Source: a virus
DNA: 61,990 bases
Strand: one strand, 5' to 3'
Virus genome (UHGV): UHGV-0106586
This document shows, piece by piece, positions 15,873-59,284 of this stretch; the first letter of the stretch is position 1; every line of letters starts with the position of its first letter. The notes below the pieces were generated by a model. It had not been told where the DNA came from, searched no databases, and was given only the letters and a program-made list of their open reading frames with translations. The translations under genes were made by a program, and so were the position numbers.

Positions 15873-16614
15873 CTTATTGTTCAGGTAAGTTCGCTACGCT
15901 TACCCCGCTTTATTCAAGCTGCTTACTGTCACCAGTAAGTCCAGACTATATCTTCTACTTATTTCTAAGTAGCGTACCATTTCGAGTCGCTTGACCCTAC
16001 ACCGCTACATTCATCACGGTTAGTCGTTCGGCATTTAAATGTACTCAAAATCATGTTCAAAGTTATTATACTCTTTTACACCCTTCAATATTGAAGAGAT
16101 AGTCTTGCGATTATACCCAAGTACATTAGATAACTCTCGTATTGACTTAGCAACAATAACTTCTTTTGTCACTTTATGTGTAGCCTTCACAGCATATGAA
16201 CGCTTACAAAACTTGTAGCAACCATTTTCATAACCCTCTTTAACATTCTCAGAATGAGTTCCCCATTCTAAGTTAGAAGCATGGTTGTTCAGTTTGTTAT
16301 CATCTTTGTGTTTTACAATTGGAAGATTGTTAGGGTTAGGTACATACTTTTCAGCAACTAACCTATGGACATACATGTCACGATTCTTCCTTCCATAAAA
16401 CCTTACTTTCATATAACCAGTGTTGGATTTCCACTGCGTAAGTTCTACACCATTTTTCCTAAAGACTCTTCCGTCCTCAGTAACATGATAATTTGGCATG
16501 TAATACTCCTATTTTATATAGTTTCTTACATCGTACATCATTTAGCACAGGATTGTCTACACCTGTAGAGTTTCCCTGTTTAGGCACGTTTTAGATGAGC
16601 TATAGAGCTTGTTA
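15873..16614 (-). mobile_element. probable group I intron interrupting nrdD (boundaries inferred), carrying an HNH homing endonuclease ORF
   Basis: nrdD frame broken by stop right after ...ISPMG and resumes at CRAFLSP...; inferred intron ends in G; possible P1 guide GCUCAU near its 5' end; 7-bp stem with GTGA tetraloop in 3' part. Confidence 0.5.
16035..16499 (-). CDS. HNH homing endonuclease (intron-encoded)
   Basis: VHRLVAEKY...VKHKDDNKLNNHASNLEWGTHSEN is a classic HNH motif. Confidence 0.75.
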   Translation of the reverse strand: MPNYHVTEDGRVFRKNGVELTQWKSNTGYMKVRFYGRKNRDMYVHRLVAEKYVPNPNNLPIVKHKDDNKLNNHASNLEWGTHSENVKEGYENGCYKFCKRSYAVKATHKVTKEVIVAKSIRELSNVLGYNRKTISSILKGVKEYNNFEHDFEYI

Positions 16615-17811
16615 ACCCATCGGTGAAATTACCTTGCCAGAACGCTCAAAAGCTTCTGCTACAGCACCATGACCAGATACACTTAAGAAATCTGGATACA
16701 TTGCTTTAGAGCAACACTCAATAGCTTTACTGTACAGGTGTCCTTGACAGATATTTTCATCATGTCTCTTCTGGTCATAAATATAAACCAGTTTAGGAAA
16801 TACAACAGGTTTTTTGCTCTTACCTTGTCCATTCATACGAACATCTAGGAGAGTGCTTGCAATCATGTACTGTAGTCGGTTATCTTCATTAGACATGTCT
16901 GAGTCAAGTAAACCAAATGTTAAAGTTGTGAATGCAAAATCACCACGGCTACAGGGTACTGTATTTAGTTTCATCTCTAGTGACTGGAAGCCTTGAGTTA
17001 ATTCAATCTGTAGCTGCTCCATGACATAATTATGGTAATGTTCTTTAGGAATACCGTAAGATGCTGCTTTCTCAGCATGATAGCGTAGAGACTTCTTAGC
17101 ATACGGTACAAGCACCTTATCAATCTCCGCTAAAGTAAATCCACCAAATTGCTGTGCAGTTGCTGAAAGAACTACATCACCGATAACTTGTAAGGCTGAC
17201 AGTACAGACTTCGGTTCACAGTATTCGATGCCAGACATTTCAAAGCCACCTTTCAGTACTTTACCAATGTCAAACAGGCAACAGTTGATACCACCAAAAA
17301 TTAGGTCTCTTAAGTCATGGATGTAGATAAACCCTTTTTCAATGGCTTCGAGTTCCTCTGGTGTTAAATGGTACTGCTTAAAGATTTCTTTAGTCAGATA
17401 ACCACGAATAATTGAACCTTTTGTAGAAATTAAACTGCTGTCAAAGTTAGCGTTTTCACGGTCGCCTAAGAAGAGTGTATCTTTGGTCTTCTGGTATAGT
17501 TCATCCCAATTTTGAGCAACTTCTTTACGGTAATTTCTATATGTTGAGTAAGACTCATAAATCTCGTGATTGACTTCTGCCAAAGCACCCTCAACAATAC
17601 TGTGAATATCGTTTACAGAAATTAGCAAATTATTCTGCTTAGTGGACTTTACCAGAATCCTCATAAATGCTGACTCAAGAGCTTGAGTAACATCTGGTGG
17701 AAGCTCTTTATAACCAACTCTGTTAGCTGACTTTGTGACGGCTGCTAAAACTTTTTTGATATCGGGTTCTTCAAGTGAGCCGTTCTTTTTAATAATCTGT
17801 ACTTTGTTCAT
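16615..17811 (-). CDS. nrdD: anaerobic ribonucleoside-triphosphate reductase, N-terminal exon (inferred exon 1)
   Basis: N-terminal ATP-cone-like region (IIKKNGSLEEPDIKKV), class III RNR-like body; frame ends ...KVISPMG then stop. Confidence 0.75.
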
Positions 17812-17830
17812 TATTGCCCCTTTACATACT

Positions 17831-17856
17831 AAAAAGGTCTCCGAAGAGACCCTTTC
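17831..17856 (-). terminator. rho-independent terminator (ggtctc-cgaa-gagacc)
   Basis: Hairpin 17836-17851 with flanking A-run. Confidence 0.5.
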
Positions 17857-17859
17857 ATT

Positions 17860-18066
17860 TTAAATCTTTTTAGAAAACTTCGCAAAGAGTTCTCTTAGTT
17901 TTTCAGTTATACCTAACTGTATCTCTAATATTTCGAAGATAACCCATAGTAACATGGCTCCAAACAATGAACCTTGCTCAAAGTCAGTAAATAGGTTAAC
18001 AATAAGCATACCAATCACAATAGCTGGTGCATCAACAACCAAACCTTCCCAAATGCGTTTAAGCAT
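17860..18066 (-). CDS. small membrane protein (68 aa)
   Basis: ORF in track; hydrophobic VVDAPAIVIGMLIVNLF segment. Confidence 0.35.
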   Translation of the reverse strand: MLKRIWEGLVVDAPAIVIGMLIVNLFTDFEQGSLFGAMLLWVIFEILEIQLGITEKLRELFAKFSKKI

Positions 18067-18301
18067 TATTCACCTCTGCCATAAAATTCTGTAGCGTCCC
18101 AACAGGTTTTAGGTTTTGTCCATCAGTTTTCATGATGAACGGCATCTGACGAACTGGCATCTGTGCAATATCCGTCAGGTCTGATAGTTCATAGTCCTGC
18201 CCTAACATTCTCACAATATGGTCAATACCACGAGCTTTTGCAAAATTCTTTGCAGTCTCACATTGAGGGCATCCAGTTTTGGAGTAAATTACATAAGTCA
18301 T
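18059..18301 (-). CDS. glutaredoxin/NrdH-like redoxin
   Basis: CPQC active-site motif near N-terminus; ~80 aa; sits beside nrdB. Confidence 0.6.
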   Translation of the reverse strand: MTYVIYSKTGCPQCETAKNFAKARGIDHIVRMLGQDYELSDLTDIAQMPVRQMPFIMKTDGQNLKPVGTLQNFMAEVNNA

Positions 18302-23601: not shown

Positions 23602-24102
23602 TCAAGCACAGTTTGCTTTCATTACCTTATGGATTCTTTTTTCAGCATCTTCATAAGTTTCTTTAGTGATAAACTTAATTGCTGCAATATTGGCATTGTA
23701 GAAGAGTCTGAGTTTAGAGTCAATCCTTTTTGTCATTACATCGAACTTATGTTGAAGGTTTGCTTCACCATAAACTAGACCACCTTTCGTGTAGTAGGTT
23801 TGGATAATGTAAAAGTCAAAAAATTCTTTTCCAAAGCTCTCGATATCTTTTTTAATATACTCAGAAGAAGTCTCATAAGTCATCCAATCACTCTCCTTAG
23901 TAACTACCTTCTTCCGAGTCTTACCAGCAACTTTTCTTTTGGTCACACTATTAAGCTGTTTTTTACCCAAATAGTACTGTCCAGTCTTTTTACAGTACAC
24001 TAGGTAGACAAAACCAAAGTGCTTTGCTGGGTCAACTTCACCACATAGTGAAATCCAGTGACCATAAGTGGGGCAACTCCCAAAACCTTTAACTTTAATC
24101 AT
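23602..24102 (-). CDS. hypothetical protein, possibly GIY-YIG-like nuclease
   Basis: FGFVYLVYCKKTGQYYLGKK loosely resembles GIY-YIG; weak. Confidence 0.3.
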   Translation of the reverse strand: MIKVKGFGSCPTYGHWISLCGEVDPAKHFGFVYLVYCKKTGQYYLGKKQLNSVTKRKVAGKTRKKVVTKESDWMTYETSSEYIKKDIESFGKEFFDFYIIQTYYTKGGLVYGEANLQHKFDVMTKRIDSKLRLFYNANIAAIKFITKETYEDAEKRIHKVMKANCA

Positions 24103-24614
24103 TCATAAGCTTCTCCGTGATTTGTAAACTCTCTATGGAGTTCTTCTCTTTTCTTTTTGACAACTGCTTCAGCCTCAGCAACAGAGTCAAATAGACCTAG
24201 ATGGTAGCAAACTTTATTATGCTTAATTTGTGCAGCCCATCTACCTCTTTGCTTGTGGTAATATACACCCTTCACGCCAGACTTATTATCTCTTCTTTTG
24301 ACTGCATTACAGTTGTTGTCTGACCTGCTGCACTCTCTCAAATTGTCGAACCAGTTATCGCATCTGATACAATTCTTATGGTCAACAAATTTTGGGAGGT
24401 ATCCTTTCATATACAAGAATGCCAGCCTGTGTGCTGCATATCTTTTTCCGAAAAGTTTTATATAGATATAACCGCTATGGTGTTTCAAACCTGCTACTGA
24501 GCCAGCTTTGGCCTTACCTTTTCTATCAACTAACCAAGTAAAGACCCCTGTTTCGGGGTCATAGTGTAGGTATTCTTTAAGAGTTTGTTGAGTTAACATT
24601 TGGTGTCCACCCAT
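24099..24614 (-). CDS. HNH endonuclease with C-terminal AP2 DNA-binding domain (free-standing homing endonuclease)
   Basis: HNH region ...AHRLAFLYMKGYLP...VDHKNCIRCDNWFDNLRE plus AP2-like SGVKGVYYHKQRGRWAAQI...GLFDSVAEAEA; start ATG 24614 or 24599. Confidence 0.75.
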   Translation of the reverse strand: MGGHQMLTQQTLKEYLHYDPETGVFTWLVDRKGKAKAGSVAGLKHHSGYIYIKLFGKRYAAHRLAFLYMKGYLPKFVDHKNCIRCDNWFDNLRECSRSDNNCNAVKRRDNKSGVKGVYYHKQRGRWAAQIKHNKVCYHLGLFDSVAEAEAVVKKKREELHREFTNHGEAYE

Positions 24615-36227: not shown

Positions 36228-36306
36228 TTATCAAAGAAGACTTTGGTGGACATGCTTGGCACTCCTTCTACTCAAAAGGCTCCATAGATTGTGAGGCAAG
36301 AGATAA

Positions 36307-36498: not shown

Positions 36499-36499
36499 A

Positions 36500-37600: not shown

Positions 37601-37606
37601 AAGTTG

Positions 37607-37839: not shown

Positions 37840-37877
37840 CAACGTAATACAAAATTTAATATAACTTTGAGGTCATT

Positions 37878-38261: not shown

Positions 38262-38262
38262 T

Positions 38263-38767: not shown

Positions 38768-38768
38768 T

Positions 38769-39128: not shown

Positions 39129-39141
39129 TAGGTGATTAACT

Positions 39142-39657: not shown

Positions 39658-39921
39658 ATGAAAATTGAACACTGCTATGAGTCTGATGGAACACCTATCC
39701 GATGTCCACATTGTGGGTGTACAGACTTACAAGGCGAGGTAAGTGAAATAGTCAACGGTCATATTGCTGAAGAGAGTACAAGGTGTACAGGATGTAATGA
39801 AATCATTGCTTTCTGGGCTTATGGTTTATACCAGCCTACACCACACTTAATCTACCATAGCAATAAAGCTGTGAAGAATGTTATTAACTGGTTCATTAAG
39901 AAAGGATTTACAAATGATTAA
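39658..39921 (+). CDS. small zinc-ribbon-like protein (CPHCGC...CTGCN)
   Basis: Two CxxC pairs. Confidence 0.4.
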   Translation: MKIEHCYESDGTPIRCPHCGCTDLQGEVSEIVNGHIAEESTRCTGCNEIIAFWAYGLYQPTPHLIYHSNKAVKNVINWFIKKGFTND

Positions 39922-40459: not shown

Positions 40460-40460
40460 T

Positions 40461-41360: not shown

Positions 41361-41364
41361 AACA

Positions 41365-41392
41365 AAAAAGGCTCCCGTAAAAAGGAGCCTTA
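41365..41392. terminator. bidirectional hairpin terminator between convergent genes (ggctcc-cgtaaaaa-ggagcc)
   Basis: Stem 41370-41375 / 41384-41389 with A/T runs on both sides. Confidence 0.55.
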
Positions 41393-41396
41393 AACT

Positions 41397-41768
41397 TCAC
41401 TTTTCAGTATTCTTTGTGTTCTTTTCAGTAATAGCTTGGAGGGCTGATACTGATTGAGCCAGATTATTCACACTATCAGAGAATTTATCAAGAGTCTTAG
41501 TAAGTTTTGCGTTCTCACCCTTAACATTCTCTAACTGGACTTTCTGGTTCTCCATCCCTAGCTGAAGCAACCTCATATCAGACTGTAAATCACGGATAGC
41601 TGAATAATTACTTTTGGAATAATTATCCAACTGCTGTAACTTTGTTGTGATAGACACTTCTTGTTTACCATCCGAAACTTGCATGGTGGTATACATCCCA
41701 ATAACACTAAAAATACCAACTACAATTGCACCAATATTATTTTTAAAAGCTTCATCTAGCCACTTCAT
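41397..41768 (-). CDS. membrane-anchored coiled-coil protein (123 aa)
   Basis: N-terminal hydrophobic IGAIVVGIFSVIGMY followed by Q/L-rich helical region. Confidence 0.4.
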   Translation of the reverse strand: MKWLDEAFKNNIGAIVVGIFSVIGMYTTMQVSDGKQEVSITTKLQQLDNYSKSNYSAIRDLQSDMRLLQLGMENQKVQLENVKGENAKLTKTLDKFSDSVNNLAQSVSALQAITEKNTKNTEK

Positions 41769-41962
41769 TTATTCTCCCCCTTAAAAGCTTTTTCTAAGTT
41801 ATCTACGAACTCATCATCAATAGGTGTGTCTGTTTTACTCGCAAGGTATCTTGCAAGCTTAAAGAACACTTTCTCAATCATGTATTCACTTAGAAGGGAT
41901 AAAATGAGTTTCCAGAAGAAGCTACCTAGATTTTTTAGAAGAATTGCTAGGATTGTAGGCAT
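41765..41962 (-). CDS. small hydrophobic protein (65 aa)
   Basis: ORF in track; hydrophobic N-terminal region. Confidence 0.35.
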   Translation of the reverse strand: MPTILAILLKNLGSFFWKLILSLLSEYMIEKVFFKLARYLASKTDTPIDDEFVDNLEKAFKGENK

Positions 41963-42041
41963 TTAATCACCTCATCAGCCAAGATGGTGAGAATACCCAT
42001 AAAGAATATTAACACCATCTTAACAATCAGTCAACAAGGGA

Positions 42042-44387
42042 TTAAGCAGTTCTTACCCAAGCCATTAACTTGTAGAACTGGTTAGTAACACTAAATGCTG
42101 AACCAGAACCTGTACCACCAGTGTTACCGCTAACTGTGTGGCTATGAGCACCAATACCTACTGAGTGAGCATGTCCCCCAGCAGATGCAGCAGAACCACT
42201 TACAGAGTGAGTGTGAACACCATCACTTTCTGTACAACCAACGTGCGTTTGAGCAGAGTTTGATGAAGCAACACGACCAGATGGTACGTTAGCGTTATCA
42301 CCTTGTGAGATTCTATGTGCGTGCCCACCACCAGAGTTAGCAGTACCACTTACAGAGTGGGTGTGAGCACCAGTGTTGTTAGTGTTCTTTGTACCATAAT
42401 CAAAAGATGAAGTGGTAGCAGAGAAACTATGGGTATGTGATGGTAAGTTACCAACAGCTAACGTCACAGAATCTGAACCACCAGTTGTAGCAACATCTGA
42501 ACCGTTTGCTGCTGCGATTCTGATAGTTCTACCAATACCATTGTTCAGGTACGTCCAAGTTAACCCAGGAAGTGCTGTATTAGGGTCAACATTACTATTA
42601 AACCACGTTACAATACCTACTGGGTAGATTTTATTCAGGTCTGTAGAGTCACTAATTGCTGTTGCAATCTTCTGGTCAGTCTCTGCTTTAGTATATGCAC
42701 CAATATCTGAAGGAGATGGTTTAAATGCCGTTGAATACAACTGCGCCTCTCCAACATATGCTCCATCTGCTCCATAAGCATATGTGAAGACATCAAGACC
42801 TTTGGACCCGTATGTAAAACCAATACCTCTGGCATGAGCAATACCAGCAGCATGTGCTACATGGATGGCTAAATCTTTCAGACCCTGCTCAATACCGTTA
42901 TTTCTTACAAACCCTGAATAATCTTTGTTGAATGATGCTGAGTCATCCAATCTATTAGTTGTCCTTGTCATTAAAGATTGGTTTAACAGTTTTGTTTTTA
43001 AGAAATATCTAGCATCCAAGTTAGACCAATCAGAAGGTTGAACTTGACCAGTGATTCTTACTGTTTTGTTCAGTAAGAAGTCATCCTTCATGTAAATGGT
43101 AGTAGCAGTCCTGTCATTGTGGATAGTGAACCTTTCTGGGTTGCTTGGTTCCCCATTACCAATATACCACCTTCTAACACCATCAGCATTAAAACCAGCA
43201 AAGTATAACCCATTGTCTTGTGCAGTATTCCTTAGTTGTAACAATAAGCCATTTTGATTAATAATCTGTGCAGACCTGAAATTGTTTACATCACTCAGTT
43301 TAGCAAGATTACTCAAAGTTCCTGCTGGAATATATCTAGAGTCAATGTTAGTCCAATCAGAAGGTTGTACTTGACCATCAATTTGAACTGTTTTGTTCAT
43401 GGCAATAGTGTTACCTAGTGAGACTTGTGTTTTTGTTAGGTAGTTATAGATTTTTAAAATGTTCTCATCACCGTCATTACCAATGTACCACTTATAATTC
43501 CCATCTGACTTTCTTGCTCGAATATATAAAGAGGGAGCAGTGTCCACATTTTGCAGAGTGATGGCTTCAGCATTCTTCTTAGCGATAAAATTAGCGAAAA
43601 TGTTAGTACCAGTAAAAGTATTATTAGCGGTTAACTGTGCAAATCTCTGATTAGCCACTGTCTGAGTGAAGTATCTAGCATCTAAGTTAGCCCAATCAGA
43701 AGGCTGAACTTGACCAGTAATCTGGATAGATTTGTTCACAGAAATTAGGTTATCCAGAAGAGCTAAATACGCACCGGATTTGACATTTTTGATAACAAGA
43801 TTATCTGCACCTCTATTATCATTACCTAGATACCACCTGTTAGTGCCATCTACATCTTGACCACGAATATATAGCGGCATTCCTTGTGTAATGTTCTTAA
43901 CAATAAGAGCTTCATTATCAGAGAGGATAGCTTGAGTACCTCTAAATGTGTTATTTACAGCTAATCTTGCATATCTTGCATCATTCTCTTCATTAGTTCT
44001 CATCCCAAGTTCATTAGGGCTTGGCTTATTCAGAGTATGATAAACAGTTGCCGACCTTGAAGCATCTGCAATAGTTAGTTTAAGGCCATTTGCGTTAATT
44101 TTAAAAGTCTTTAAAACATCCCCAATATTAATCTCAGAAGAGCCTGTTGGGTCAAACACTACCTTACCACCATAAAGTAACTTAACAATCCCTAAGTCAC
44201 CTGTCATAGTACTACCAGCAATCTGAACAAATCTTTCAAGTTTAAAAGATGCTAAGAAATCTCGATAGGTCATTCGACGGTCTTCATCACCCAGCATTTC
44301 AGGTCTCTTTTTAACTCTGACATGAAGAAGGTCGTCTGAACGGATTGTGTCGATTGAGTTTAATTCACTCAACTTGTAATCTGCCAT
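42042..44387 (-). CDS. tail fibre protein with tandem ~100-aa internal repeats and His-x-His-rich C-terminal region
   Basis: Repeated WY(I/L)GN and GQVQPSDW-N-D-RYF modules; C-terminal HTHS/HAHR/HSHT motifs; ends ...AWVRTA. Confidence 0.7.
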   Translation of the reverse strand: MADYKLSELNSIDTIRSDDLLHVRVKKRPEMLGDEDRRMTYRDFLASFKLERFVQIAGSTMTGDLGIVKLLYGGKVVFDPTGSSEINIGDVLKTFKINANGLKLTIADASRSATVYHTLNKPSPNELGMRTNEENDARYARLAVNNTFRGTQAILSDNEALIVKNITQGMPLYIRGQDVDGTNRWYLGNDNRGADNLVIKNVKSGAYLALLDNLISVNKSIQITGQVQPSDWANLDARYFTQTVANQRFAQLTANNTFTGTNIFANFIAKKNAEAITLQNVDTAPSLYIRARKSDGNYKWYIGNDGDENILKIYNYLTKTQVSLGNTIAMNKTVQIDGQVQPSDWTNIDSRYIPAGTLSNLAKLSDVNNFRSAQIINQNGLLLQLRNTAQDNGLYFAGFNADGVRRWYIGNGEPSNPERFTIHNDRTATTIYMKDDFLLNKTVRITGQVQPSDWSNLDARYFLKTKLLNQSLMTRTTNRLDDSASFNKDYSGFVRNNGIEQGLKDLAIHVAHAAGIAHARGIGFTYGSKGLDVFTYAYGADGAYVGEAQLYSTAFKPSPSDIGAYTKAETDQKIATAISDSTDLNKIYPVGIVTWFNSNVDPNTALPGLTWTYLNNGIGRTIRIAAANGSDVATTGGSDSVTLAVGNLPSHTHSFSATTSSFDYGTKNTNNTGAHTHSVSGTANSGGGHAHRISQGDNANVPSGRVASSNSAQTHVGCTESDGVHTHSVSGSAASAGGHAHSVGIGAHSHTVSGNTGGTGSGSAFSVTNQFYKLMAWVRTA

Positions 44388-44433
44388 TATAAATTTTCCT
44401 CTTAAAAGGGGCTATAAAGCCCCTGTAAAGAAA

Positions 44434-45621
44434 TTAAGCTGTTCTCTGCCATACATACAGCACGAAGGATGGCTGTTCAATGTTGAAAGCTTGCCCACCA
44501 CCAACACTGTTCGTGTTTCCACTATGCGTATGCTCAGAAGAAGAAACTGTCACAGTACCATTGTGCGTATGTGAACCAATACCAACTGTGTGACTGTGAG
44601 CACCAATACCCACCGTATGGTTGTGGTCACCAGTTGTGTTAGTGGTAACACTGAAAGAGTGGGTGTGCTCACCAGCGACTTCACAGACAGCATCTGCTGA
44701 GTACCATGATTGGTCATTCCTTGTAGACCAAACCATTGCAGGTCTTTCCGATAGACCACCACCTGCTTCATAGGTCAATCTGTGGTTGTGAGCACCAGCA
44801 GCACTTGTTGACCCACTGCCAACGTGATTATGGTTACCAGTTGTGTTGGTGGTCTTTGTCCCATAGTCAAAAGAGTTGGTAGTCTTAGTCCCATAATCAA
44901 AAGCTGAAATTGACACAGTTGCATTATGAGTGTGACCACCACCACTAAGAGACACAGAGTGAGAGTGTTGAGGCATGTTATTAACTGACAAAGTGACAGT
45001 CGAAGCACCAAATACAGAACCTGCTGGCCTTGTATCAGAGTCATAACCAACCAATGCCCTACCTTTTGAAACCAACTCCCAAGTACCTCCACAAATTAAG
45101 TATGTAGAAGGGTTTGCAGAGTTCATAGAAAGATGGATAGTACCTACTGGATAAGAAGCCTGAACAGCCTTGTACAAGTTATTTACTGCTCTTGCTGTAG
45201 CATACTTATCTGCATCTTCATTATACAGGTTAGATGTTGTCCAGTTCTGAACATTACTTAAACCAACCTGTGCCTTAGTTGTATTGTGTGGGTTACTCTT
45301 GTCCTTGATATGTTGTTGGACAAGATTATTAACCTCTTCTGAAGACATAATCTGTAGATTTGCTCTTGCCTCAGCTACATTAACAATATCTGATAAGTTA
45401 TTTGCAGCAACTAACTGAAGAGCATTAATAACATTATCTAAACCAATCTGTGTCTTAGTAACACCATGAGGGTTATTTCTTAGGCTTGAGTGTGGAGCAA
45501 GTAATTGCTCAAGAGTACACCTCTTATCCTCAATACCCTGCTTAAGATGGAAGATATCACTAAGGTCAATTGGTAAGGCTGCTTGAGGCAAGGCACTAAT
45601 TTGAATTTCACCTACTGCCAT
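44434..45621 (-). CDS. second tail fibre / receptor-binding protein with fibre repeats and His-x-His-rich C-terminus
   Basis: NPHGVTKTQIGLDNV and NPHNTTKAQVGLSNV fibre-repeat motifs; YPVGTIHL... collar-like region; HxH motifs; ends ...VWQRTA. Confidence 0.7.
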   Translation of the reverse strand: MAVGEIQISALPQAALPIDLSDIFHLKQGIEDKRCTLEQLLAPHSSLRNNPHGVTKTQIGLDNVINALQLVAANNLSDIVNVAEARANLQIMSSEEVNNLVQQHIKDKSNPHNTTKAQVGLSNVQNWTTSNLYNEDADKYATARAVNNLYKAVQASYPVGTIHLSMNSANPSTYLICGGTWELVSKGRALVGYDSDTRPAGSVFGASTVTLSVNNMPQHSHSVSLSGGGHTHNATVSISAFDYGTKTTNSFDYGTKTTNTTGNHNHVGSGSTSAAGAHNHRLTYEAGGGLSERPAMVWSTRNDQSWYSADAVCEVAGEHTHSFSVTTNTTGDHNHTVGIGAHSHTVGIGSHTHNGTVTVSSSEHTHSGNTNSVGGGQAFNIEQPSFVLYVWQRTA

Positions 45622-45623
45622 TA

Positions 45624-51445
<5,822 letters not shown>

Positions 51446-51486
51446 TCATTTTTAACCAAGCCTTTGATATATAAGTATTTTCTCTG

Positions 51487-51556
51487 TTAAGCGTGAGCTA
51501 CGTAAAAAATAATTTTTGGTGGGTATATCTGTTCAGAAGATTTCACGTAGCATTCG
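51487..51556 (-). promoter_or_regulatory. conserved ~70-bp element upstream of gene 50615..51406 (copy 1 of 2)
   Basis: Shares blocks ttaagcgtg, tacgtaaa, gtgggtat, atttcacgtagca with 53631-53700. Confidence 0.4.
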
Positions 51557-51563
51557 ACTATTA

Positions 51564-53612
51564 TCAATCATCTTCTGGGAATGATGAACTTAATAGCGTA
51601 GCTTCTGCGTATTGGTCGTAGATATTACTGCTAAAGGTCATAAAGCTGGTTTCATCTGGTTTAATGGCAACTTCACCACCAAGTGAAACTTTCACAGGCT
51701 CCTGAATACGTTTGCTCAAAGCACTAATTTCATCTCTCAGGCTTTGGATATCCGTATTCGTTAATGCCGCATCTTGTCTCATGGTGATTAATTCTGGATG
51801 CTGGAAGTTAGCAAGATTCATAGCTGCACTATTAAACCAACCTTTCACATCGTCCATTGTAAATACTGGCTTAAGTCCAGACTCTTTAGCCAGCTCTGGT
51901 AATTTAGCTTGTGCTTCCATTCGTTCAGGTGTAGAGGCTAATCTTTCATAACCTGCATAGATAGCACTACCAGCTAATAGCATATTCCCAAGATTAAACC
52001 TTGATGGTTTCCCGTTCTTTCTATTCACGTTATCCGCTGTAGTATCAGCGACCTGACCTAATCTTGTGATAGCAGTCATAAGCCCGTAAATACTTCTGGT
52101 TACACCAACAACTTTATTTACAGCAATAACACCAGCCAAGACTTTTAAACTATTAATCAAGCCAGAACCTAAAGCATCAACAACTTTCTTTTGTTCATCG
52201 GTTAAACCACGATAAGCCAATGTCACCTCATCAAAGAACGCCCTTACCCTGTAACTAATATCAGTCAGGTTATCGACACCGTGTGACATAGAAGTCATGA
52301 GATTACCAAGACTTTCACCTAATGTTTTACCACTCCCACCAAGACTATTTAAAAGCGTTGTTAAGCTTCTTGTGAAATCTTGAAGACCATTTTCAGAACC
52401 TCTGAAGATATCCGTTAGTGAGTTGTTCCAAGTATTCTTTAAGTTCCCTAACATCGTCTGCGTAGAGTCCTGAATAGCTTTCCAGCCACCTCTGGAATTA
52501 ATCTGTGAACCAAGTTCTTTAGCAAACTTAGGGAGTGCATCAGAGGCTTTAACATCACCATTTTTCATCTTATCGAAAAGCTGTTTTTCAGTCAGACCTA
52601 AAGCCTTTGCAAATGCCTGAGTAGCACCCGGTAAAGCTTCAGATAGTTGCCCCTTAAGCTCTTCAGCCATCACCTGACCCTTAGAAGCCATCTGCGATAC
52701 TGCGGTTAATGCTCTTTGAATCTGCTCATCTGAACGACCCATTAAACGGGCATATCCAGTTAAGTTTTTAAATAATTCCTCTGAGCCTTCAAGACCCATC
52801 GTATTTTTTGCAGATGCACCAAATGAAGCAAACTGTGCTTGTGTTTCGGTTGTGTCCATACCAGTAATTTGAGTTAAATCTTGAATGAACTTTTTGACCT
52901 GTGTACTTTGGTCACCGAATACGAAATCAATACTTCTTTCCGATGATGCACGTTGAAGGCCAACTTCCATAATCTTCTGATAAGCGGATAGTACAGCCTG
53001 AAAGCTGATAAATGCACCTGCTGTTTTAACTGCTGCTGAACTCAAACTATCAAGACTATTAGCTGCTCTGTCACCGTTAATGCTGGTGGATGTATGACCT
53101 TTAGCTTTAGCAATTGCTTCTCTGACTGAAGCATTTAACTGAGCCAGCTTCTCATTGAATTTTGAATTATCCATCTGACCAGCTTTAGCAGATAGCCCGT
53201 AAAACTGAGATTTGATGTATTTCTGCAAAACAGGGTCAAAGCCCTTTAACTTGCTCATATTCGCTGAGTAAGCTGCTGTGATTGCTCTGTTTCCGCTAAT
53301 TCGTGGCTGTCTTGGTTGTTTTGGAGGATTAATAGCGTCATTAACCTGACTTGTGAAACGGAAAGCTTTTGTGCTTCTTGCTCTCTGTTCAATCTTGTCA
53401 AAAGCCTTATTAAACTTCCTTTCAAGTTGCCCTAAAGAACTTGTCAAATTACTATCAAGCTGTTTTGTATTAATCCTGAAACCTTTATTTAGGTTCTTTT
53501 CAATTCTTTGTGCTGACTGCAAAGCTGCCTTTTCAACTCTTTGCAAGCCTTTAACAACGTTTTCACTGAAGCCTAATTCAACGATAAAACTATCAACTGT
53601 AAATTTGCTCAT
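51564..53612 (-). CDS. tail tape measure protein
   Basis: 682 aa, alpha-helical low-complexity composition, TMP-like core QVMAEELKGQLSEALPGA, position upstream of baseplate genes. Confidence 0.7.
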   Translation of the reverse strand: MSKFTVDSFIVELGFSENVVKGLQRVEKAALQSAQRIEKNLNKGFRINTKQLDSNLTSSLGQLERKFNKAFDKIEQRARSTKAFRFTSQVNDAINPPKQPRQPRISGNRAITAAYSANMSKLKGFDPVLQKYIKSQFYGLSAKAGQMDNSKFNEKLAQLNASVREAIAKAKGHTSTSINGDRAANSLDSLSSAAVKTAGAFISFQAVLSAYQKIMEVGLQRASSERSIDFVFGDQSTQVKKFIQDLTQITGMDTTETQAQFASFGASAKNTMGLEGSEELFKNLTGYARLMGRSDEQIQRALTAVSQMASKGQVMAEELKGQLSEALPGATQAFAKALGLTEKQLFDKMKNGDVKASDALPKFAKELGSQINSRGGWKAIQDSTQTMLGNLKNTWNNSLTDIFRGSENGLQDFTRSLTTLLNSLGGSGKTLGESLGNLMTSMSHGVDNLTDISYRVRAFFDEVTLAYRGLTDEQKKVVDALGSGLINSLKVLAGVIAVNKVVGVTRSIYGLMTAITRLGQVADTTADNVNRKNGKPSRFNLGNMLLAGSAIYAGYERLASTPERMEAQAKLPELAKESGLKPVFTMDDVKGWFNSAAMNLANFQHPELITMRQDAALTNTDIQSLRDEISALSKRIQEPVKVSLGGEVAIKPDETSFMTFSSNIYDQYAEATLLSSSFPEDD

Positions 53613-53630
53613 TGTTCATATTTCACCTCT

Positions 53631-53700
53631 TTAAGCGTGTTGTACGTAAATTCTATTTTTCAGTGTGGGTATTAGCTTTACAGATTTCACGTAGCACACA
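53631..53700 (-). promoter_or_regulatory. conserved ~70-bp element upstream of the tape measure gene (copy 2 of 2)
   Basis: Same conserved blocks as 51487-51556 in the same order and spacing. Confidence 0.4.
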
Positions 53701-53770
53701 TACAAAAAAGGGAGAAACTACCGATGTCACTCGATAATCTCTCCCGTAGATTTTTACCCAACCAATCTTT

Positions 53771-53974
53771 TTACCCAACCAGATAATAATTGCCATCTTC
53801 ACCAACAATCTGACAATCACTTGGTAATTTATCAAGACACCATTTAGCGATTCTTCTGATTCTGTTATTTTGCTTAGAGGTGGATGATTTGATTCGTTTT
53901 GGTTTGTTGGGTTGTTCTTTCAGTCGTTCACTAATTGCCTTGATGAGTTCATAGCGTTCTGTTAAATCAATCAT
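53771..53974 (-). CDS. hypothetical protein (67 aa), N-terminus paralogous to the next ORF
   Basis: MIDLTERYELIK vs MNDLTERDKRIK. Confidence 0.3.
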   Translation of the reverse strand: MIDLTERYELIKAISERLKEQPNKPKRIKSSTSKQNNRIRRIAKWCLDKLPSDCQIVGEDGNYYLVG

Positions 53975-53999
53975 TCACCACCTCCTTTTTAATTCGATT

Positions 54000-54308
54000 T
54001 TAATCTAAGTAGTGTATACACTCGACACCGCGTTCATTCTTTTGAATTTCATAACGTAGTGAAAGACCAGTTTGATAATACACAGTATCAAGCTTATTTA
54101 TCTTATCCTTGAGTTCGATAAGAAGTCGCGTTAAATCATCCCGACCATCACACTTTAGTTCGGCAAGAGGCTTTTCGTCCATACGACCAATAAGATATTC
54201 AGTGACCTCCTGAATATCACCAAGAGTCGTTTTAATTTCATTGAACCTATCTTCAAAAGGTTCCATCACCCCTTTAATTCTTTTATCACGTTCTGTTAAA
54301 TCATTCAT
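54000..54308 (-). CDS. hypothetical protein (102 aa)
   Basis: ORF in track. Confidence 0.4.
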   Translation of the reverse strand: MNDLTERDKRIKGVMEPFEDRFNEIKTTLGDIQEVTEYLIGRMDEKPLAELKCDGRDDLTRLLIELKDKINKLDTVYYQTGLSLRYEIQKNERGVECIHYLD

Positions 54309-54316
54309 TAATCACC

Positions 54317-55027
54317 TCAAATAGCCTTTGCATATTTCTGAGAAATCTTCATTAACTGCTCAATATCGGCTTGCATAGCAATCTTCTTCTGTGATTCATA
54401 TTCACTAACAAGTTCTTTCATAGCCTGAAGCTCTCTTGAGAGATACAACTTAACATTTTCAAGTTGCTTGTTACGTGATGCCAAGATGTTCTGTCTAGCA
54501 AGTTCACAGAGTTCTTCATCGCTCTTATTAGTCATATAAATAAATTGACCAGCACCCCTTGAAGCTTTAACCATCTTCACAATTCGATATCCGTCAGGAA
54601 GATTATTAATCACGTCTGGGATATTCTCAGGAAAAGTACCAAAACCATCATTATCTTCGTATTGGTAATAGACAAATGGTTTCTGTGACAATTCATCCTG
54701 AATCTCAAATTCTGACGGCTCAATAGCTGATTGCATCAGGGTAACTTTGCTGTAAGCGTCATCAAGTTTAATACGCTGTGCTTTTAACTGTGGGTAATAT
54801 TCACGCTCAAGATTAAATAGTGCTTCACTTTTGCAGATATCTGGCATTTCTTGAGGCTCAGGAGACACAAAGGTAATTTCCTTTGGTGACATCTTTAACG
54901 ATTGCTCAAGCTTAATTCTTTCATCGTGTTCTTTACGCTGAATAGTGATAGCTGGATGTTCAGTCTGTGGCGACCAGTCACCGAAGCTATCAACCTTTCT
55001 GCCATTAATGTAAATATCATTTGTCAT
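54317..55027 (-). CDS. hypothetical protein (236 aa)
   Basis: ORF with ATG and GAGGAAAT RBS. Confidence 0.45.
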   Translation of the reverse strand: MTNDIYINGRKVDSFGDWSPQTEHPAITIQRKEHDERIKLEQSLKMSPKEITFVSPEPQEMPDICKSEALFNLEREYYPQLKAQRIKLDDAYSKVTLMQSAIEPSEFEIQDELSQKPFVYYQYEDNDGFGTFPENIPDVINNLPDGYRIVKMVKASRGAGQFIYMTNKSDEELCELARQNILASRNKQLENVKLYLSRELQAMKELVSEYESQKKIAMQADIEQLMKISQKYAKAI

Positions 55028-55553
55028 TATAATTTCCTCTAAGTGTGATTATTTCTTAATAGAGCACCTTCAACGCCAATACACTTAGAAGATGACTTAA
55101 CGATTTATTAAAGATGCTCTATAAAGAAAAGCCCTAAACATAGGTTCATCCTCATCTGTGAAGGGCTTTGGAGGTTTGCTTTAACGTTAACGAAGTTTCA
55201 GGAAAAAGTTCTGTTTGAAAACTCTTAAAGAAACGCCCTAACTCATGATTAGGGCAAAGCTGTAAAGGGTTCAATGAATGAATGATTAAGCACTTTTTGA
55301 GATAGCCTATCTAGTGTGGGCTAAATAGGCCATGACGAAAAGCATTGCACCTTTCCAACTCAGAATATAGTTATCATCGATGTAGAGACGATTAATATTT
55401 TAATTCAAGGAGAATTGCTCTCCCTATATATACAATTATGTCATGCTCAAGGTTATTTGTCAACAGCTTTTTAACAGATTGGTAACATTTATACTTTAAT
55501 AGATGCACCTGCAATCATACCAATCAATACAAAACAGATAATCACCAATTCCA

Positions 55554-55877
55554 TTAATGCACCACCTTCGAATCCGTCACCAAAATATTGTCAGCGTACA
55601 AAATTGCTATAGCTGCCTTGAGATATCTTTCAGGGCTAATACTGTATTTGTTCGTTTGCTCGATAACCAATCTTTTCATGTTGCTGTCTATAATTGGTAG
55701 CATCATTCGAGGCTCGTTAAACTCCACCGACTGAATAAAGTCTTCAATTACTTCTGAGTTATCAGCCATTAGCCTTAACAGCCTGTCAAAGTCAATGCTA
55801 ACACCTACATCAGTGAAAGCCTGAATCATCATAGCGGTGTCGTTATCAACGAAAATCTGTAATGGGTAATTGTTCAT
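55554..55877 (-). CDS. hypothetical protein (107 aa from ATG 55877)
   Basis: ATG with AAAGGAGA RBS. Confidence 0.45.
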   Translation of the reverse strand: MNNYPLQIFVDNDTAMMIQAFTDVGVSIDFDRLLRLMADNSEVIEDFIQSVEFNEPRMMLPIIDSNMKRLVIEQTNKYSISPERYLKAAIAILYADNILVTDSKVVH

Positions 55878-56032
55878 TTTTAAAATCTCCTTTTTACCAG
55901 ACCTCCTCAATCGCTCTGTAACGAGCTAAACAGTCTTTTTCAGGGGTAGCCTGTACAGTGGTATTACCCACCCTAAAATAAGATAGTTTTTTGCGTTAGA
56001 ATGCGATTGAGAGCGCCTGAGAAGCTATTTTT

Positions 56033-56320
56033 CTAATTTCTCTTAAAGTCTCGGACTTGCATAAGATTTTTTGGTCTGGTATCGGCTCTGTTACCATTTC
56101 GATGGATAATTTGCTTGTTGGATTGATAGCCATGATAAAGGAACCAGACAACATATTTCACGTAGAAAGTATATCGGCCTATATTAAATGTTTTGTTGCC
56201 GTAGTCGTCGGTATTTATCGTGACTGACTCTCCATCAGACCAGCACAGGGAATCACTGGATTCATCATAGATAAGGTGTTCTGTAAAATATCGTCTAACA
56301 TCTTCATGCCAAGGTTTCAT
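56033..56320 (-). CDS. truncated/degenerate HNH-like protein (N-terminal HNH region only, no AP2 domain)
   Basis: LIYDESSDSLCW...FYVKYVVWFLYHGYQ...IIHRNGNRADTRPKNL parallels the N-terminal halves of the intact HNH-AP2 proteins but with substituted catalytic positions. Confidence 0.4.
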   Translation of the reverse strand: MKPWHEDVRRYFTEHLIYDESSDSLCWSDGESVTINTDDYGNKTFNIGRYTFYVKYVVWFLYHGYQSNKQIIHRNGNRADTRPKNLMQVRDFKRN

Positions 56321-56532
56321 AAAACCTCCTCACCCCAATAACCTAATTCAATCTTGTGACGCTCAAACCATTCCGGTTTAACTGCTGTTTTCAGTACTTC
56401 ATTTGGGCCAATGGCTTTAATGAAAATATCTTTTGAGTTATGGATGTCACCGAATCCGTTTCCCTTAATCAGGAGGTCGGAGATGTGGCGAATCATTTTA
56501 TCCGTGTGGTATTCAAAGGTAACGCATAGCAT
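56317..56532 (-). CDS. hypothetical protein (71 aa)
   Basis: ORF in track. Confidence 0.35.
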   Translation of the reverse strand: MLCVTFEYHTDKMIRHISDLLIKGNGFGDIHNSKDIFIKAIGPNEVLKTAVKPEWFERHKIELGYWGEEVL

Positions 56533-56810
56533 TAAACCTCCATCGCTAACTTGTGAATCTTAAGACTCAATAGACGGGCAATATCAATCTTAAAGCCGTT
56601 AAGTGCCTTCAAAGTATCTAAAGCGTCCTGAGTAATTCGGATGTGCTTACGACCTTTAGAGACTGGATATTTAAGTAAATCCGACTCAGTGACCTCTTTA
56701 GCAATTGCAAGCTGCATTACAGTTTGATGAGGCAAGTTAGTAGCTCGTTTAATTCTGGTAAGCTCGTTAAAAGCTTCCTCTGAAATACGGGTTAATGTGT
56801 GTTTATTCAT
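56532..56810 (-). CDS. hypothetical protein (92 aa)
   Basis: ORF in track. Confidence 0.4.
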   Translation of the reverse strand: MNKHTLTRISEEAFNELTRIKRATNLPHQTVMQLAIAKEVTESDLLKYPVSKGRKHIRITQDALDTLKALNGFKIDIARLLSLKIHKLAMEV

Positions 56811-57368
56811 TTAAAATTCCTCTGTAACTAAATACGGGTCAAACTCGAAATCTGGTTGCTCGTTTTCCATTGGCTCAATATTCCCAACGGCAATATGATG
56901 TTCAACAATACCAATTAGCTTTGCACACATTACAGCAAGCAAAGCGCAATATTTATCGCTTGGTAATTCATGGCTAAGTCTGGTTGCTTGTCTTTGAAGA
57001 TAATTTGTCACGCTGGCTGCGTTAATTTCGTCAAGATTCTTTAGAAGATAAAATAGTTTTTTGTTGTATTTCGGGTGGCCTTCACTTCTACAGAATCCAA
57101 TGAAAATATCATCAAGCTTACTTGGTAGTTGCTCGTAAGAATCAAAGTTAGCCAGATAATTTTTAATAGTGTTCTGGGTGCTCTTTCTGGTTGGCATAAA
57201 TCTGTCTCGTGGCGTAATGCTACGAATTACTTCGTCAATGCCTTTGCGTTCTTTCTTGGTGAGCTTGGGTAGTTCGTAGCTGGTTGGGTTGTTTGTGTAA
57301 GCGTAGGAGTTGTGCTTGTTACGTTGTCTCGATGCCTGAAGCATCGCTCTAAATTCTGCGTCTCTCAT
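56811..57368 (-). CDS. hypothetical protein (185 aa)
   Basis: ORF in track; first gene of a minus-strand operon. Confidence 0.45.
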   Translation of the reverse strand: MRDAEFRAMLQASRQRNKHNSYAYTNNPTSYELPKLTKKERKGIDEVIRSITPRDRFMPTRKSTQNTIKNYLANFDSYEQLPSKLDDIFIGFCRSEGHPKYNKKLFYLLKNLDEINAASVTNYLQRQATRLSHELPSDKYCALLAVMCAKLIGIVEHHIAVGNIEPMENEQPDFEFDPYLVTEEF

Positions 57369-57419
57369 TCATGTTCCGACCCTCATAAGATGTTATTATT
57401 CTGTTAACTTATATATACA

Positions 57420-57448
57420 ATACTAGCATTTTCAAAGACTAATGTCAA
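57420..57448 (-). promoter_or_regulatory. sigma70-like promoter for minus-strand operon 57368..55554 (-35 TTGACA, 17-bp spacer, -10 TAGTAT)
   Basis: Read from reverse complement of 57420-57448. Confidence 0.35.
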
Positions 57449-57473
57449 GTATTTTTTAACATTTTATTAACAT

Positions 57474-57486
57474 CTGTGGTATAATG
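57474..57486 (+). promoter_or_regulatory. extended -10 promoter-like element (TGGTATAAT), plus strand
   Basis: TGnTATAAT seen at 57478-57486; no good -35. Confidence 0.35.
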
Positions 57487-57612
57487 GTTCTATGGGGAGA
57501 GTAAAATATAAAGGCGTGGCTATGAGGTTTATTCGATAGGGGTTGGTACAAGCCCAACTAACCGAATCAACTATGTATGTCACATGGTATTGCATTGCAC
57601 ACAGGAAATTTA

Positions 57613-57789
57613 ATGGTAAATCTCCCTCCTGAACTGGGGTCACCTGATGTATGGGCTGGTGGAGGTATCGGGCTGATTGCAGGTCTGTTACTCCGCTACG
57701 TCCTCGTCAGAGTGCTTGTTGTCTTTAAACTGTTCGGTCGTACATGGACGCTTGACCTTAAGGATAATGACCACACGGACCCCCGTTAA
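57613..57789 (+). CDS. small single-pass membrane protein candidate (58 aa), more GC-rich than surroundings
   Basis: AGGAAA RBS then ATG; GGGIGLIAGLLLRYVLVRVLVVF hydrophobic helix. Confidence 0.3.
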   Translation: MVNLPPELGSPDVWAGGGIGLIAGLLLRYVLVRVLVVFKLFGRTWTLDLKDNDHTDPR

Positions 57790-58840
57790 ACCCCCTTCAA
57801 AACCCCTATACCATCTCGTACAGGGGTATCTTTAGCATTTTGTGCTATCTATTAAAAAATAGCTTGACAGAACCAGAAAGCTGTATCTATCAAGTATTCA
57901 CCTCTCTGACAGTGATTTCTAAAAGTTCTTATTTTTCAATAAGTTGTAATTAGCCATATATAGTAGCTGTTCAGCACCTTCACAGATGACTTCAAGCCTT
58001 CTTAGCTATCCACTAAGCGGGAGAAGAGCGATAACCCCAGAGAGGGAAGCTCCCTTCTAATTGGTATTGTTATGAGGATGCTTCATCCGAATCATCTACC
58101 AATCCCTAAACCGACTTTCTTAACCAGCCCTTTACGTTATTCGTTCACAGTGTTGATAAGTGGTTTTGCCCTCTGTTTCTGTTATCATCGGGCTTACCTT
58201 ATCAGGGCTTTGAAATGCCCTGTAACTCCCCTCTTAACGGGAGAGAAAGAACATAGTGACCCCAAGCGAAGCGCCCCTCTAAAAAGATTTTTTAGCTACT
58301 TTGTTTAAAAGCACATCAAACGATACATTTTATTGATTTAGGTCAAAGACAAAAGCATTGACAAAATGGTAAGATTGTTCACATGACCTTACTTAACAGA
58401 TTCTTAAGAGCTTTGAAACAGCCTGTCTAACAAGGTCACTACCTCTGGTCTTATCGTTCCCTCTCTTCTTGGTAGTTCTGTTAAGTATTTTTCAGTTTTA
58501 TTCTTAAGATAATTGTTAAGATAGAACCTACCTTCGGTTTCATGGTTCTCTTCCTCCCGTTAAACAATTCTTCCTAACTATCTACATAATCACTACCAAG
58601 AATCTTACAAGGTAATATCCAGACCTCTTATAGTTGACCTGATACAGAAACATTACAGACATGCTCTCTAGGTTCTGTGTAGTTCCCTTGTTGGGAATAG
58701 ATGCTCCTACAATAAGAGCATCATTAATCTATATACTCCTCTTCCGAGAACTTAATGTTTTTTTAATGTATATCAATCATTATCCAAAATATGATATGAA
58801 GTTTCTTGGTAGTATTACATCAACAAGTTAATTGAAATAA

Positions 58841-59284
58841 GGAATATTATTTAGAAATGGTGTAAAAATCGAGGGTTCACTTGTAAATCCTAAACCAAGA
58901 CAATACCTGGCTTTTGGTTGTCGGATTAATGGTAAGTTCAGAATACTTAAGGTGCATCAGGTTATTTTCTATCTATATCATGGTAAACAAGCTAAACTAT
59001 AGATTGACCATATAGATGGTGACCCGCTAAATAATGCTATTAGCAATCTTCGCGAGGTTACCAAAGAGCAGAATCAGGCAAACATGATACCCAGAAAGAA
59101 AACAAAATCAGGTTACAAGGGGGTACACCCAAGAGTGGATAACAAGGGGTTCTGGGCTACAATACGCTGTAATGGAAAATCTCATTATCTGGGTCAGTTT
59201 AATACAGCAGAAGAAGCTGCAAAAGCCTATGATGCTGCATCACTGGAATTGCATGGTGAATATGGACACAGGAATTTTAGCTGA
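58841..59284 (+). pseudogene. HNH-AP2 homing endonuclease pseudogene: no start codon for the N-terminal part, in-frame TAG at 59000-59002, AP2-domain remnant retained as ORF 59084..59284
   Basis: Hand translation ...VHQVIFYLYHGKQAKL*IDHIDGDPLNNAISNLRE...SGYKGVHPRVDNKGFWATIRCNGKSHYLGQFNTAEEAAKAY parallels the intact copy at 34184..34687. Confidence 0.6.

Follow-up and report, generated by a model that had tools for sequence, protein, structure and literature searches.

We report that UHGV-0106586, a virus genome of the UHGV collection comprising 61,990 nucleotides (henceforth the window, by which we mean the whole stretch), very probably consists of two genetic entities, namely part of a virulent phage of the genus Felixounavirus and one turn of a circular island of Escherichia coli, joined by a 55-mer. 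What passes for a 62-kb phage contig would thus really combine a fragment of a phage with a circular island of bacterial origin, so that comparisons of gene copies within it mislead. This bears directly on the five genes of the HNH endonuclease type found in the window, which we term H1 to H5: the first three are situated in the phage part and the last two in the island. The latter include H4, an apparent remnant that is in fact among the best-conserved genes of its element, and H5, which can be dated as a very recent pseudogene through comparison with an intact allele. The five are as follows:

16035-16499, minus strand: H1, intron-encoded HNH endonuclease, 154 amino acids, I-HmuI-like, with an HNH_3 match and a weak NUMOD1 match
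24099-24614, minus strand: H2, HNH-AP2 endonuclease gene, 171 amino acids, overlapping the 3' end of the 5'-3' exonuclease gene
34184-34687, plus strand: H3, HNH-AP2 endonuclease gene, 167 amino acids, overlapping the DNA polymerase stop codon by 19 bp
56033-56320, minus strand: H4, HNH-only protein, 95 amino acids, homologous to residues 1-95 of the HNH-AP2 type
58841-59284, plus strand: H5, HNH-AP2 pseudogene of the island, with lesions relative to the intact 174-residue allele WP_000258747.1

The complete window is the metagenome contig NODE_478 of the ENA assembly ERZ1304109. Its bases 1-50894 derive from a Felix O1-like phage, and the segments 14000-36000 and 36000-51383 display about 94% nucleotide identity to Felix O1, pinkbiff and more than 200 other Felixounavirus genomes. 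A search of 51384-61868 against 50,697 phage records recovered no nucleotide match except blocks of about 45-60 bases. The terminal 55 bases of the window repeat positions 50895-50949, and hence bases 50895-61990 constitute a closed circle of 11,041 bp. This circle is a chromosomal island of E. coli: the segment is 97-99% identical at the nucleotide level to an island of about 11-13 kb in E. coli chromosomes, but is circularly permuted with respect to it, and parts of it are matched in 550 of 5426 complete E. coli genomes, the location being chromosomal in every case. The features around the meeting point of the two entities are:

50895-61935, no strand: one full turn of the circular excised island, 11,041 bp, with 97-99% nucleotide identity to integrated islands
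50895-50949 and 61936-61990, no strand: exact 55-bp repeat, the meeting point of phage and island, with flanks that differ immediately before it
50615-51427, minus strand: hybrid Dit-like tail gene (Pfam Dit_like, E 4.8e-20), its N-terminal part island-type and its C-terminal part phage-type
61674-61990, minus strand: C-terminal part of the island Dit-like gene, cut by the contig end, corresponding to positions 190-262 of PHROG 3721

The island is written once with a 55-base overlap, which is the pattern expected of a de Bruijn assembler with k = 55, and the same 55-mer is the attachment point of the phage part, lying within the Dit-like tail gene common to both entities. Sliding identity along the hybrid gene switches from island to phage around 50895-50950, and among 153 billion gene positions the hybrid protein as called (263 residues, 50615-51406) was found nowhere but on this contig. 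The IMG/VR contig 3300029816_000002 (62,131 bp) is 100% identical to positions 47318-50970 of the window and terminates at 50970; thus, a second assembly of the same phage halts at this repeat. Further, Felix-like flanks are absent from the five island-bearing IMG/VR contigs, which are H4 loci in integrated islands. As the identical phage stops at 50970, the hybrid Dit is unique and the island contigs lack Felix-like flanks, we conclude that the join is most likely an artefact of the assembly graph. A point against this conclusion is that phage and island have about 480 bp in common at 92-97% identity, which leaves room for recombination in vivo. One might then hold that the contig is a true molecule, in which the island recombined into the phage via the homologous Dit-like gene and came to lie between two Dit copies. 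The assembler did give a continuous path, and the common 480 bp, which encode the N-terminal part of the island Dit and resemble Felix-like phages such as CRP22, point to past exchange; moreover, this island variant, with a broken recombinase and an occurrence restricted to metagenomes, may need another vehicle. However, such a recombinant would have to have its junction at exactly one 55-mer that recurs at the contig end, to be broken at that junction in an independent assembly of the identical phage, and to carry a hybrid Dit found on no other contig; island DNA is, apart from the short blocks, in none of the sequenced phages, and a stand-alone 11-kb island contig (L010) exists. We hence consider a true recombinant improbable and favor two entities joined by assembly. 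As to the remainder of the island Dit, its C-terminal part shows 92% amino acid identity to the Dit of a chromosomal island (L004) and 59% to the phage Dit.

With respect to the HNH sequences themselves, we used the gathering scores of the Pfam profiles HNH_3 (PF13392; 24.8 bits) and AP2 (PF00847; 33.3 bits) as cutoffs. All five exceed the former with 34.3-53.8 bits, at E-values of 2.7e-10 for H1, 1.5e-12 for H2, 3.7e-12 for H3, 1.8e-8 for H4 and 1.5e-14 for H5 when read through its stop, which bears out an initial annotation of the window that had listed five HNH-type genes at these positions. The AP2 domain scores above its cutoff in H3 (41.3 bits, E 1.9e-10); it is recognizable at sub-threshold levels in H2 (30.9 bits) and H5 (28.3 bits), the respective regions of which align to that of H3, and is absent from H1 and H4. 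No sixth HNH_3-like stretch was recovered in the window by tblastn searches with the five copies. Pairwise amino acid identities from tblastn amount to 38.5% for H2 and H3, 47% for H3 and H5, 32% for H2 and H5, and about 31% for H3 and H4, while those of H1 to the other four (24-35%) come with non-significant E-values. Judged by this level of divergence, the five are a family in the Pfam sense and not recent paralogues. Taking D74, H75 and N96 of the beta-beta-alpha-metal motif of I-HmuI as the catalytic reference, we find that H1, H2, H3 and H5 all possess the histidine together with the downstream NL and asparagine; the residue before the histidine is aspartate in H2, H3 and H5, and lysine in H1.

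The initial annotation had treated the five as paralogues within a single phage genome, a set of homing endonuclease genes at different points between invasion and decay. Several observations agree with this: all five match HNH_3, H4 corresponds to the N-terminal part (95 residues) of the HNH-AP2 type without its AP2 domain, and one copy is a true pseudogene. Nevertheless, the fourth and fifth copies are on the circular E. coli island and not in phage DNA, the pairwise identities of 24-47% are not those of recent paralogues, and the 95-residue gene is intact in 226 genomes under strong constraint (see below), all of which makes it very improbable that the five record the decay of one gene in one genome. 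The part of the interpretation that stands is its dynamics, for invasion, loss and decay are visible, though across genomes and not among the five copies of a single one. A comparison of insertion sites, which had been suggested along with it, shows that H1 with its intron, H2, H3 and the cassette containing H5 are each either present or precisely absent at the same site in close relatives, with empty sites in the phages Felix O1 (for the intron), warpig (H2) and AYO145A (H3). No such presence/absence polymorphism was seen for H4: all islands that were inspected contain it.

The whole of H4 corresponds in alignment to residues 1-95 of H2 and H3, an N-terminal FIYD-type motif included. Its start codon (ATG) shares bases with the stop codon of the open reading frame (ORF) that precedes it, at 56317-56532, in a run of abutting ORFs, and no AP2 trace was found downstream of it by tblastn of the five copies against the window. 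It had been initially described as an N-terminal-only degenerate copy; the N-terminal-only architecture is upheld, but the gene is not in decay. A DNA search recovered it at full length in 226 of the 5426 complete E. coli genomes, with 95.5-100% nucleotide identity, and it is annotated as an intact coding sequence in every genome listed. An assembly collection lists the identical protein in 11,010 indexed blocks, and a database of 5.8 billion proteins contains about six clusters of it at 90% identity, of which the three well-populated ones are all 95 residues long; the three minor matches measure 89, 107 and 53 residues, and the 107-residue variant is apparently frameshifted. This can be set against another protein of the same island:

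54317-55027, minus strand: g236, island protein of 236 amino acids lacking a Pfam domain, named 'transposase' by NCBI

At 90% identity, the latter falls into 3118 clusters, nearly all of Escherichia origin, and is very fast-evolving compared with H4. Between H4 and its counterparts in two islands chosen by DNA search, we counted 8.5-9 synonymous and 1-4.5 non-synonymous differences, corresponding to a ratio of non-synonymous to synonymous divergence (dN/dS) of 0.03-0.12, and the genes neighboring H4 in these two islands have protein identities of 44-91%. This pattern of substitution indicates that H4 is not decaying and is under purifying selection. We posit that H4 most likely arose by domestication of an HNH-AP2 endonuclease and now has a function in the island, where it might act through DNA binding or nicking in the dealings of the island with a helper phage.

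Certain observations weigh against this proposal or temper it. Where its relatives have IDH, H4 has IIH, the aspartate before the catalytic histidine being replaced by isoleucine in every member, and the protein ends at the position of the metal-binding asparagine of I-HmuI, which makes activity doubtful and any specific role a guess. The first loci compared for its conservation were picked by exact protein match and were thereby biased, a bias that the two independently chosen loci and the DNA search partly remove. Moreover, a Foldseek search of the PDB with an AlphaFold model of H4 (pLDDT 72) returned no match with an E-value below 0.8. An alternative proposal would be that H4 is not a catalytically dead domain but an active stand-alone HNH nuclease or nickase, which could for instance cut the DNA of the helper or aid packaging. 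The catalytic histidine and the asparagine of the NL motif are indeed kept, the purifying selection is strong, and some satellites are known to turn nucleases on their helpers, as exemplified by the nicking effector of PLE. However, the isoleucine beside the catalytic histidine is shared by every family member, termination at the metal-binding position leaves the helix of the beta-beta-alpha-metal fold shortened, and no DNA-binding module of the AP2 or NUMOD type is attached. We accordingly view an active nuclease as possible though rather doubtful, and retain the domesticated derivative as the preferred reading of H4.

The second HNH gene of the island, H5, presents a very different history. 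Its intact 174-residue allele (WP_000258747.1) occupies the same island position in E. coli MS10495 and in the O157:H7 strain Rafaela_II. Relative to this allele, H5 has suffered an 89-bp deletion between two ATTAT repeats (microhomology at 58846-58850), by which the start codon and about 27 codons were lost, and a nonsense change of TGG to TAG at 59000-59002; stop codons lie upstream of it at 58829-58840. Apart from one further change, of lysine to glutamate, it is identical to the intact allele at the aligned positions (99.4% over 505 bases). The initial description of H5 as a pseudogene with an in-frame TAG and a lost N-terminus is thereby vindicated, as is the statement that its AP2 remnant persists as an intact ORF:

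59084-59284, plus strand: AP2-only ORF inside H5, 66 amino acids, open, differing at one position from the intact allele

The H5 stretch is 100% identical in contigs from ERR1190806, JGI 3300029816 and ERZ1303766, and as the same TAG recurs in these other assemblies it is not a sequencing error, a doubt that had been raised at the outset. The contigs sharing it represent one near-clonal island lineage (99.1-100% identical), and the JGI 3300029816 sample, which holds the identical phage, may not be an independent sample. Translational readthrough of the TAG was also considered and ruled out as a simple reading, given that the intact allele has TGG at this place and H5 lacks a start codon as well; ARAGORN detected no tRNA over the whole window, and hence no suppressor tRNA for the TAG was seen in it.

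One island (L003) lacks the cassette containing H5 and has 245 bp instead of 714 bp, and in other islands a Dam methylase or a resolvase is found as cargo in its place. It is 98-100% identical between islands whose backbones are only 82-88% identical; such a distribution among the islands is that of a mobile endonuclease gene. Searches of phages by tblastn with the intact protein disclosed no recent donor, all 1220 matches falling below 60% amino acid identity. We envisage H5 as a free-standing HNH-AP2 cassette of the variable non-coding region of the island, which was inactivated very recently in this lineage. It had been suggested that the surviving AP2-only ORF may have been kept as a DNA-binding protein; on this view, selection would have retained it on its own once the nuclease half was gone. 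This ORF is open and starts with ATG, it has been called as a gene with a weak AP2 match in a JGI contig, the same state is seen in several contigs, and the AP2 domains of plants do bind DNA alone (PMC4237383). Nevertheless, with the pseudogene 99.4% identical to the intact allele and only one substitution accrued beyond the two disabling lesions, there has been too little time for the AP2 region to decay; an open ORF is hence expected by default and furnishes no evidence of retention. The contigs with the AP2-only state also collapse into the single near-clonal lineage, and at this site the inspected E. coli islands have the full 174-residue gene or other cargo, never an annotated AP2-only gene. 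Selective retention thus appears highly unlikely, and recent inactivation suffices as the account of H5.

In the phage part, the initial claim that H1 is borne by an intron is corroborated by an exact insert of 742 nucleotides relative to the uninterrupted nrdD gene of Felix O1, the elements of which are:

16615-17811, minus strand: nrdD exon 1 (large subunit of the anaerobic ribonucleotide reductase), matching Felix O1 nrdD at 95% nucleotide identity as far as the insert
15873-16614, minus strand: predicted group I intron in nrdD, 742 nucleotides, exact insert relative to Felix O1
14925-15872, minus strand: nrdD exon 2, 93% nucleotide identity to Felix O1 nrdD, in frame after splicing

The 5' exon ends with U and the last base of the intron is G, and the joined exons encode a NrdD of 714 residues sharing 98.6% identity with its Felix O1 counterpart. 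From these features we infer a self-splicing group I intron, although the Rfam evidence is below threshold and to that extent speaks against the assignment: the Intron_gpI model (RF00028) reaches 38.6 bits (E 4.9e-8), short of its gathering score of 50, and at the gathering threshold Rfam gave no match over the whole window. The model is split by the ORF, with a second piece of 17.7 bits upstream of it. H1 matches I-HmuI itself (PDB 1U3E) at an E-value of 8.4e-10 over 113 residues and has a dN/dS of 0.05 relative to the phage pinkbiff. It likewise parallels I-HmuI, which is encoded in a group I intron of the Bacillus phage SPO1, in being an HNH enzyme within a group I intron of a gene of nucleotide metabolism, and differs from it in host gene and phage lineage. 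Relatives of the window phage present three states of the nrdD site, namely intronless, with an intron devoid of the ORF, and with intron and ORF. The intron with the ORF occurs in about 60 records, and most of the Felix-like records matching the whole region, like Felix O1 itself and unlike the window phage, have no intron. In phage EC6 the intron is kept and 423 bp of the H1 ORF (16068-16490) are deleted. The nrdD gene of phage T4 is also intron-bearing (PMC3185647), and a split nrdD with a homing endonuclease is already annotated in many of the GenBank relatives. Pieces of the intron within 15874-15954 and 15994-16037 are 83% identical to phiKZ-like Pseudomonas phages, and others are 95-98% identical to records of T4-like, Vibrio and Campylobacter phages; these short matches across phages are presumably conserved core segments common to unrelated phages.

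H2 and H3 are the free-standing HNH-AP2 genes of the phage, H2 squeezed between the exonuclease gene and a GIY-YIG gene, and H3 between the polymerase gene and the gene that follows. They had been reported as intact copies next to the exonuclease and polymerase genes, which is supported by their domains, by their Felix O1 orthologues (ORF106 for H2 and ORF95 for H3) and by the 19-base overlap of H3 with the polymerase ORF, the end of which is at 34202. These orthologues, at 97-98% amino acid identity and the same sites beside the exonuclease and polymerase genes, show no difference of substance from the window copies. H3 also matches the structures of I-HmuI and of plant AP2/ERF domains. Both genes have exact empty sites: warpig has 12 bp in place of window positions 24106-24612, and AYO145A has 27 bp in place of 34181-34682. 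The H2 allele occurs in 43 phage records, with others having a divergent allele (58% amino acid identity in pinkbiff) or none, and its dN/dS is 0.18-0.28. The H3 allele is restricted to 16 of 210 matching records and has a dN/dS of 0.04-0.05, with a dS equal to that of the polymerase gene. Two features adjoin these genes:

23602-24102, minus strand: SegE-like GIY-YIG gene, 166 amino acids (Pfam SegE_GIY-YIG, E 9.1e-27), adjoining H2
33960-34140, plus strand: hyper-divergent patch in the last approximately 80 polymerase codons, a candidate target or co-conversion tract beside H3

The SegE-like gene, which unlike H2 is present in Felix O1, pinkbiff and warpig alike, is a sixth homing-endonuclease-type gene of the window that the initial list did not include; it goes by the name of NAD synthetase in some records. 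A weaker dip in identity (78%) is seen at 24000-24105, beside H2. The polymerase patch has 48-60% nucleotide identity to AYO145A, which lacks the endonuclease, as against 90-98% to Felix O1, which has it; elsewhere the identity to AYO145A is 65-93% further upstream in the polymerase gene (mostly 73-85%) and 95-100% in the first 300 bp or so downstream of H3. Such a patch would be expected where a free-standing homing endonuclease has its target or leaves a co-conversion tract, and this one is a candidate for the site of the putative cleavage. In a mixed infection, the enzyme would be expected to cut an endonuclease-less allele close to its own insertion site, upon which recombinational repair would copy the endonuclease gene, or the intron, together with its flanks into the cut allele. 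Viewed in this light, H1, H2 and H3 are, by their sequences, intact and selectively constrained phage homing endonuclease genes of the conventional kind, with predicted cleavage activity and predicted target sites. Such phage HNH genes are already known in kind, six HNH copies having been reported from the Felix O1 genome (PMC3185647) and the HNH-AP2 endonucleases of Felix 01 and RB49 having been cited as relatives of the plant AP2 domains (PMC4237383); what is new here are the exact empty sites in warpig and AYO145A and the divergent polymerase patch.

Returning to the island, we observed that in both MS10495 and Rafaela_II it splits the gene yecE. In these strains its cargo includes a large serine recombinase of 507 residues, a Dit-like "baseplate" gene, a tape measure gene, eight small genes, one of which is H4, and the 174-residue HNH-AP2 gene. 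Other copies of the island are located near tonB/yciI, or between rutG and wrbA. Its further features in the window are:

60325-60331, no strand: attP-like junction core TGATTTT, joining ends that are apart as attL and attR in yecE at locus L004
60400-61659, plus strand: large serine recombinase, 419 instead of 507 amino acids (Pfam Resolvase, Recombinase, Zn_ribbon_recom)
51564-53612, minus strand: island tape measure protein, 682 amino acids (Pfam TMP_3 and PHROG tape measure families)

The circular junction is represented in four contigs, and L010, L011 and L012 are contiguous across the attP-like sequence. The recombinase bears an in-frame deletion of 88 residues in its catalytic domain, such that only positions 1-63 of the 145 positions of the Resolvase profile are left; in alignment to the chromosomal form, its residues 1-78 correspond to 1-78 and its residues 71-419 to 159-507, and the 507-residue chromosomal copies are complete. 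The exact 419-residue protein is found in ten metagenome contigs only, six of them 10-20 kb long, and in no isolate genome, which raises the prospect that the lineage with this shortened enzyme may no longer be able to integrate.

The tape measure and Dit-like genes are the only recognized virion genes of the island. Its tape measure protein shares 31% amino acid identity with the 742-residue one of the Felix-like phage CRP22. Across island variants (L003-L016), the tape measures range from 682 to about 725 residues with 44-57% identity between variants, the Felix-like protein having 742 residues; if the length of the tape measure sets that of the tail, tails directed by the island would be shorter. 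When the island proteins were compared with the phage part by tblastn, only the tape measure and H4 found distant relatives. Seven small island proteins had no match in Pfam, PHROGs, PADLOC or NCBIfam, such absence of detectable homology being weak evidence in itself. The region of about 3 kb at 57400-60400 contains no ORF other than the HNH-AP2 pseudogene. It has five copies of CATAGTTGATTCGG, as against 0.35 expected in the whole window, and a perfect tandem repeat of 33 bp in 2.4 copies (60236-60314) stands beside the attP. Two blocks within this region, 59412-59456 and 58428-58462, have 93-94% identity to a non-coding part of the Felix-like phage JLBYU28 close to its left end. These elements may represent a regulatory, origin or packaging signal common to phage and island.

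The combination of a recombinase, att sites, chromosomal integration and an excised circular form, with no full set of virion or replication genes, is in keeping with a phage satellite. We hence propose that the island looks like a candidate satellite of Felix O1-like phages with a putative dependence on such helpers, the link to which is circumstantial and consists of the co-assembly, the phage-like N-terminus of its Dit and the two phage-like non-coding blocks. The literature searched contained no description of a Felix O1 satellite or of an island in yecE. Identity of the island with SpLE2 or with prophage Sp13 of E. coli O157:H7 Sakai was considered and rejected, both being unrelated elements. 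The closest analogy is offered by PLE of Vibrio cholerae, a satellite of the lytic phage ICP1: it too is a small chromosomal island that encodes a large serine recombinase, forms an excised circle and is associated with a virulent myovirus, and on its side too there are endonuclease-derived genes, such as that for CapR, a domesticated endonuclease-derived protein (PMC10055350). No sequence relationship was found between PLE and the island, for which induction and packaging by a helper are putative, and the tape-measure and Dit-like genes of the island have no counterpart mentioned for PLE in the text consulted. The same study by Barth et al. (2023) lists 224 putative E. coli satellites of about 13 kb, which resemble the island in having a tape measure and one baseplate component with most tail genes absent, and a subset of which uses a serine recombinase (PMC10055350). 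They differ in possessing a RepA_N initiator, a major capsid protein and a decoration protein, and in having mostly tyrosine integrases by tRNA genes (PMC10055350); none of these three proteins was detected in the island with Pfam, PHROGs, PADLOC or NCBIfam. The island is, unlike these satellites, linked to Felix O1-like phages.

In a more far-reaching scenario, virulent Felix O1-like phages would have in the circle a satellite not described before, with its own tape-measure and Dit-like tail genes and short non-coding signals of phage type, caught excised beside its helper in gut metagenomes. The universally conserved H4 would be domesticated and used against or with the helper in the manner of CapR, and the present lineage, its recombinase and HNH-AP2 cassette both broken, would have ceased to integrate and would persist only by travelling with the phage. 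Taken as a whole, we deem this scenario unlikely. The island family, at about 11-13 kb, is in any case found in roughly 4-10% of complete E. coli genomes, at several integration sites. If it is a satellite, it would provide a tractable E. coli system for the satellites of virulent phages, and a second case of endonuclease-derived genes in the conflict between satellite and helper.

Two further observations pertain to the phage part of the window. Self-comparison of the window revealed internal direct repeats of 54-68 bp, 79-91% identical to each other, at 43002-43738 within an ORF of 781 residues in the tail-fibre region (42042-44387). Near the left end, on the minus strand at 993-1778, the phage encodes a Macro-domain protein of 261 residues (Pfam E 1.2e-7).

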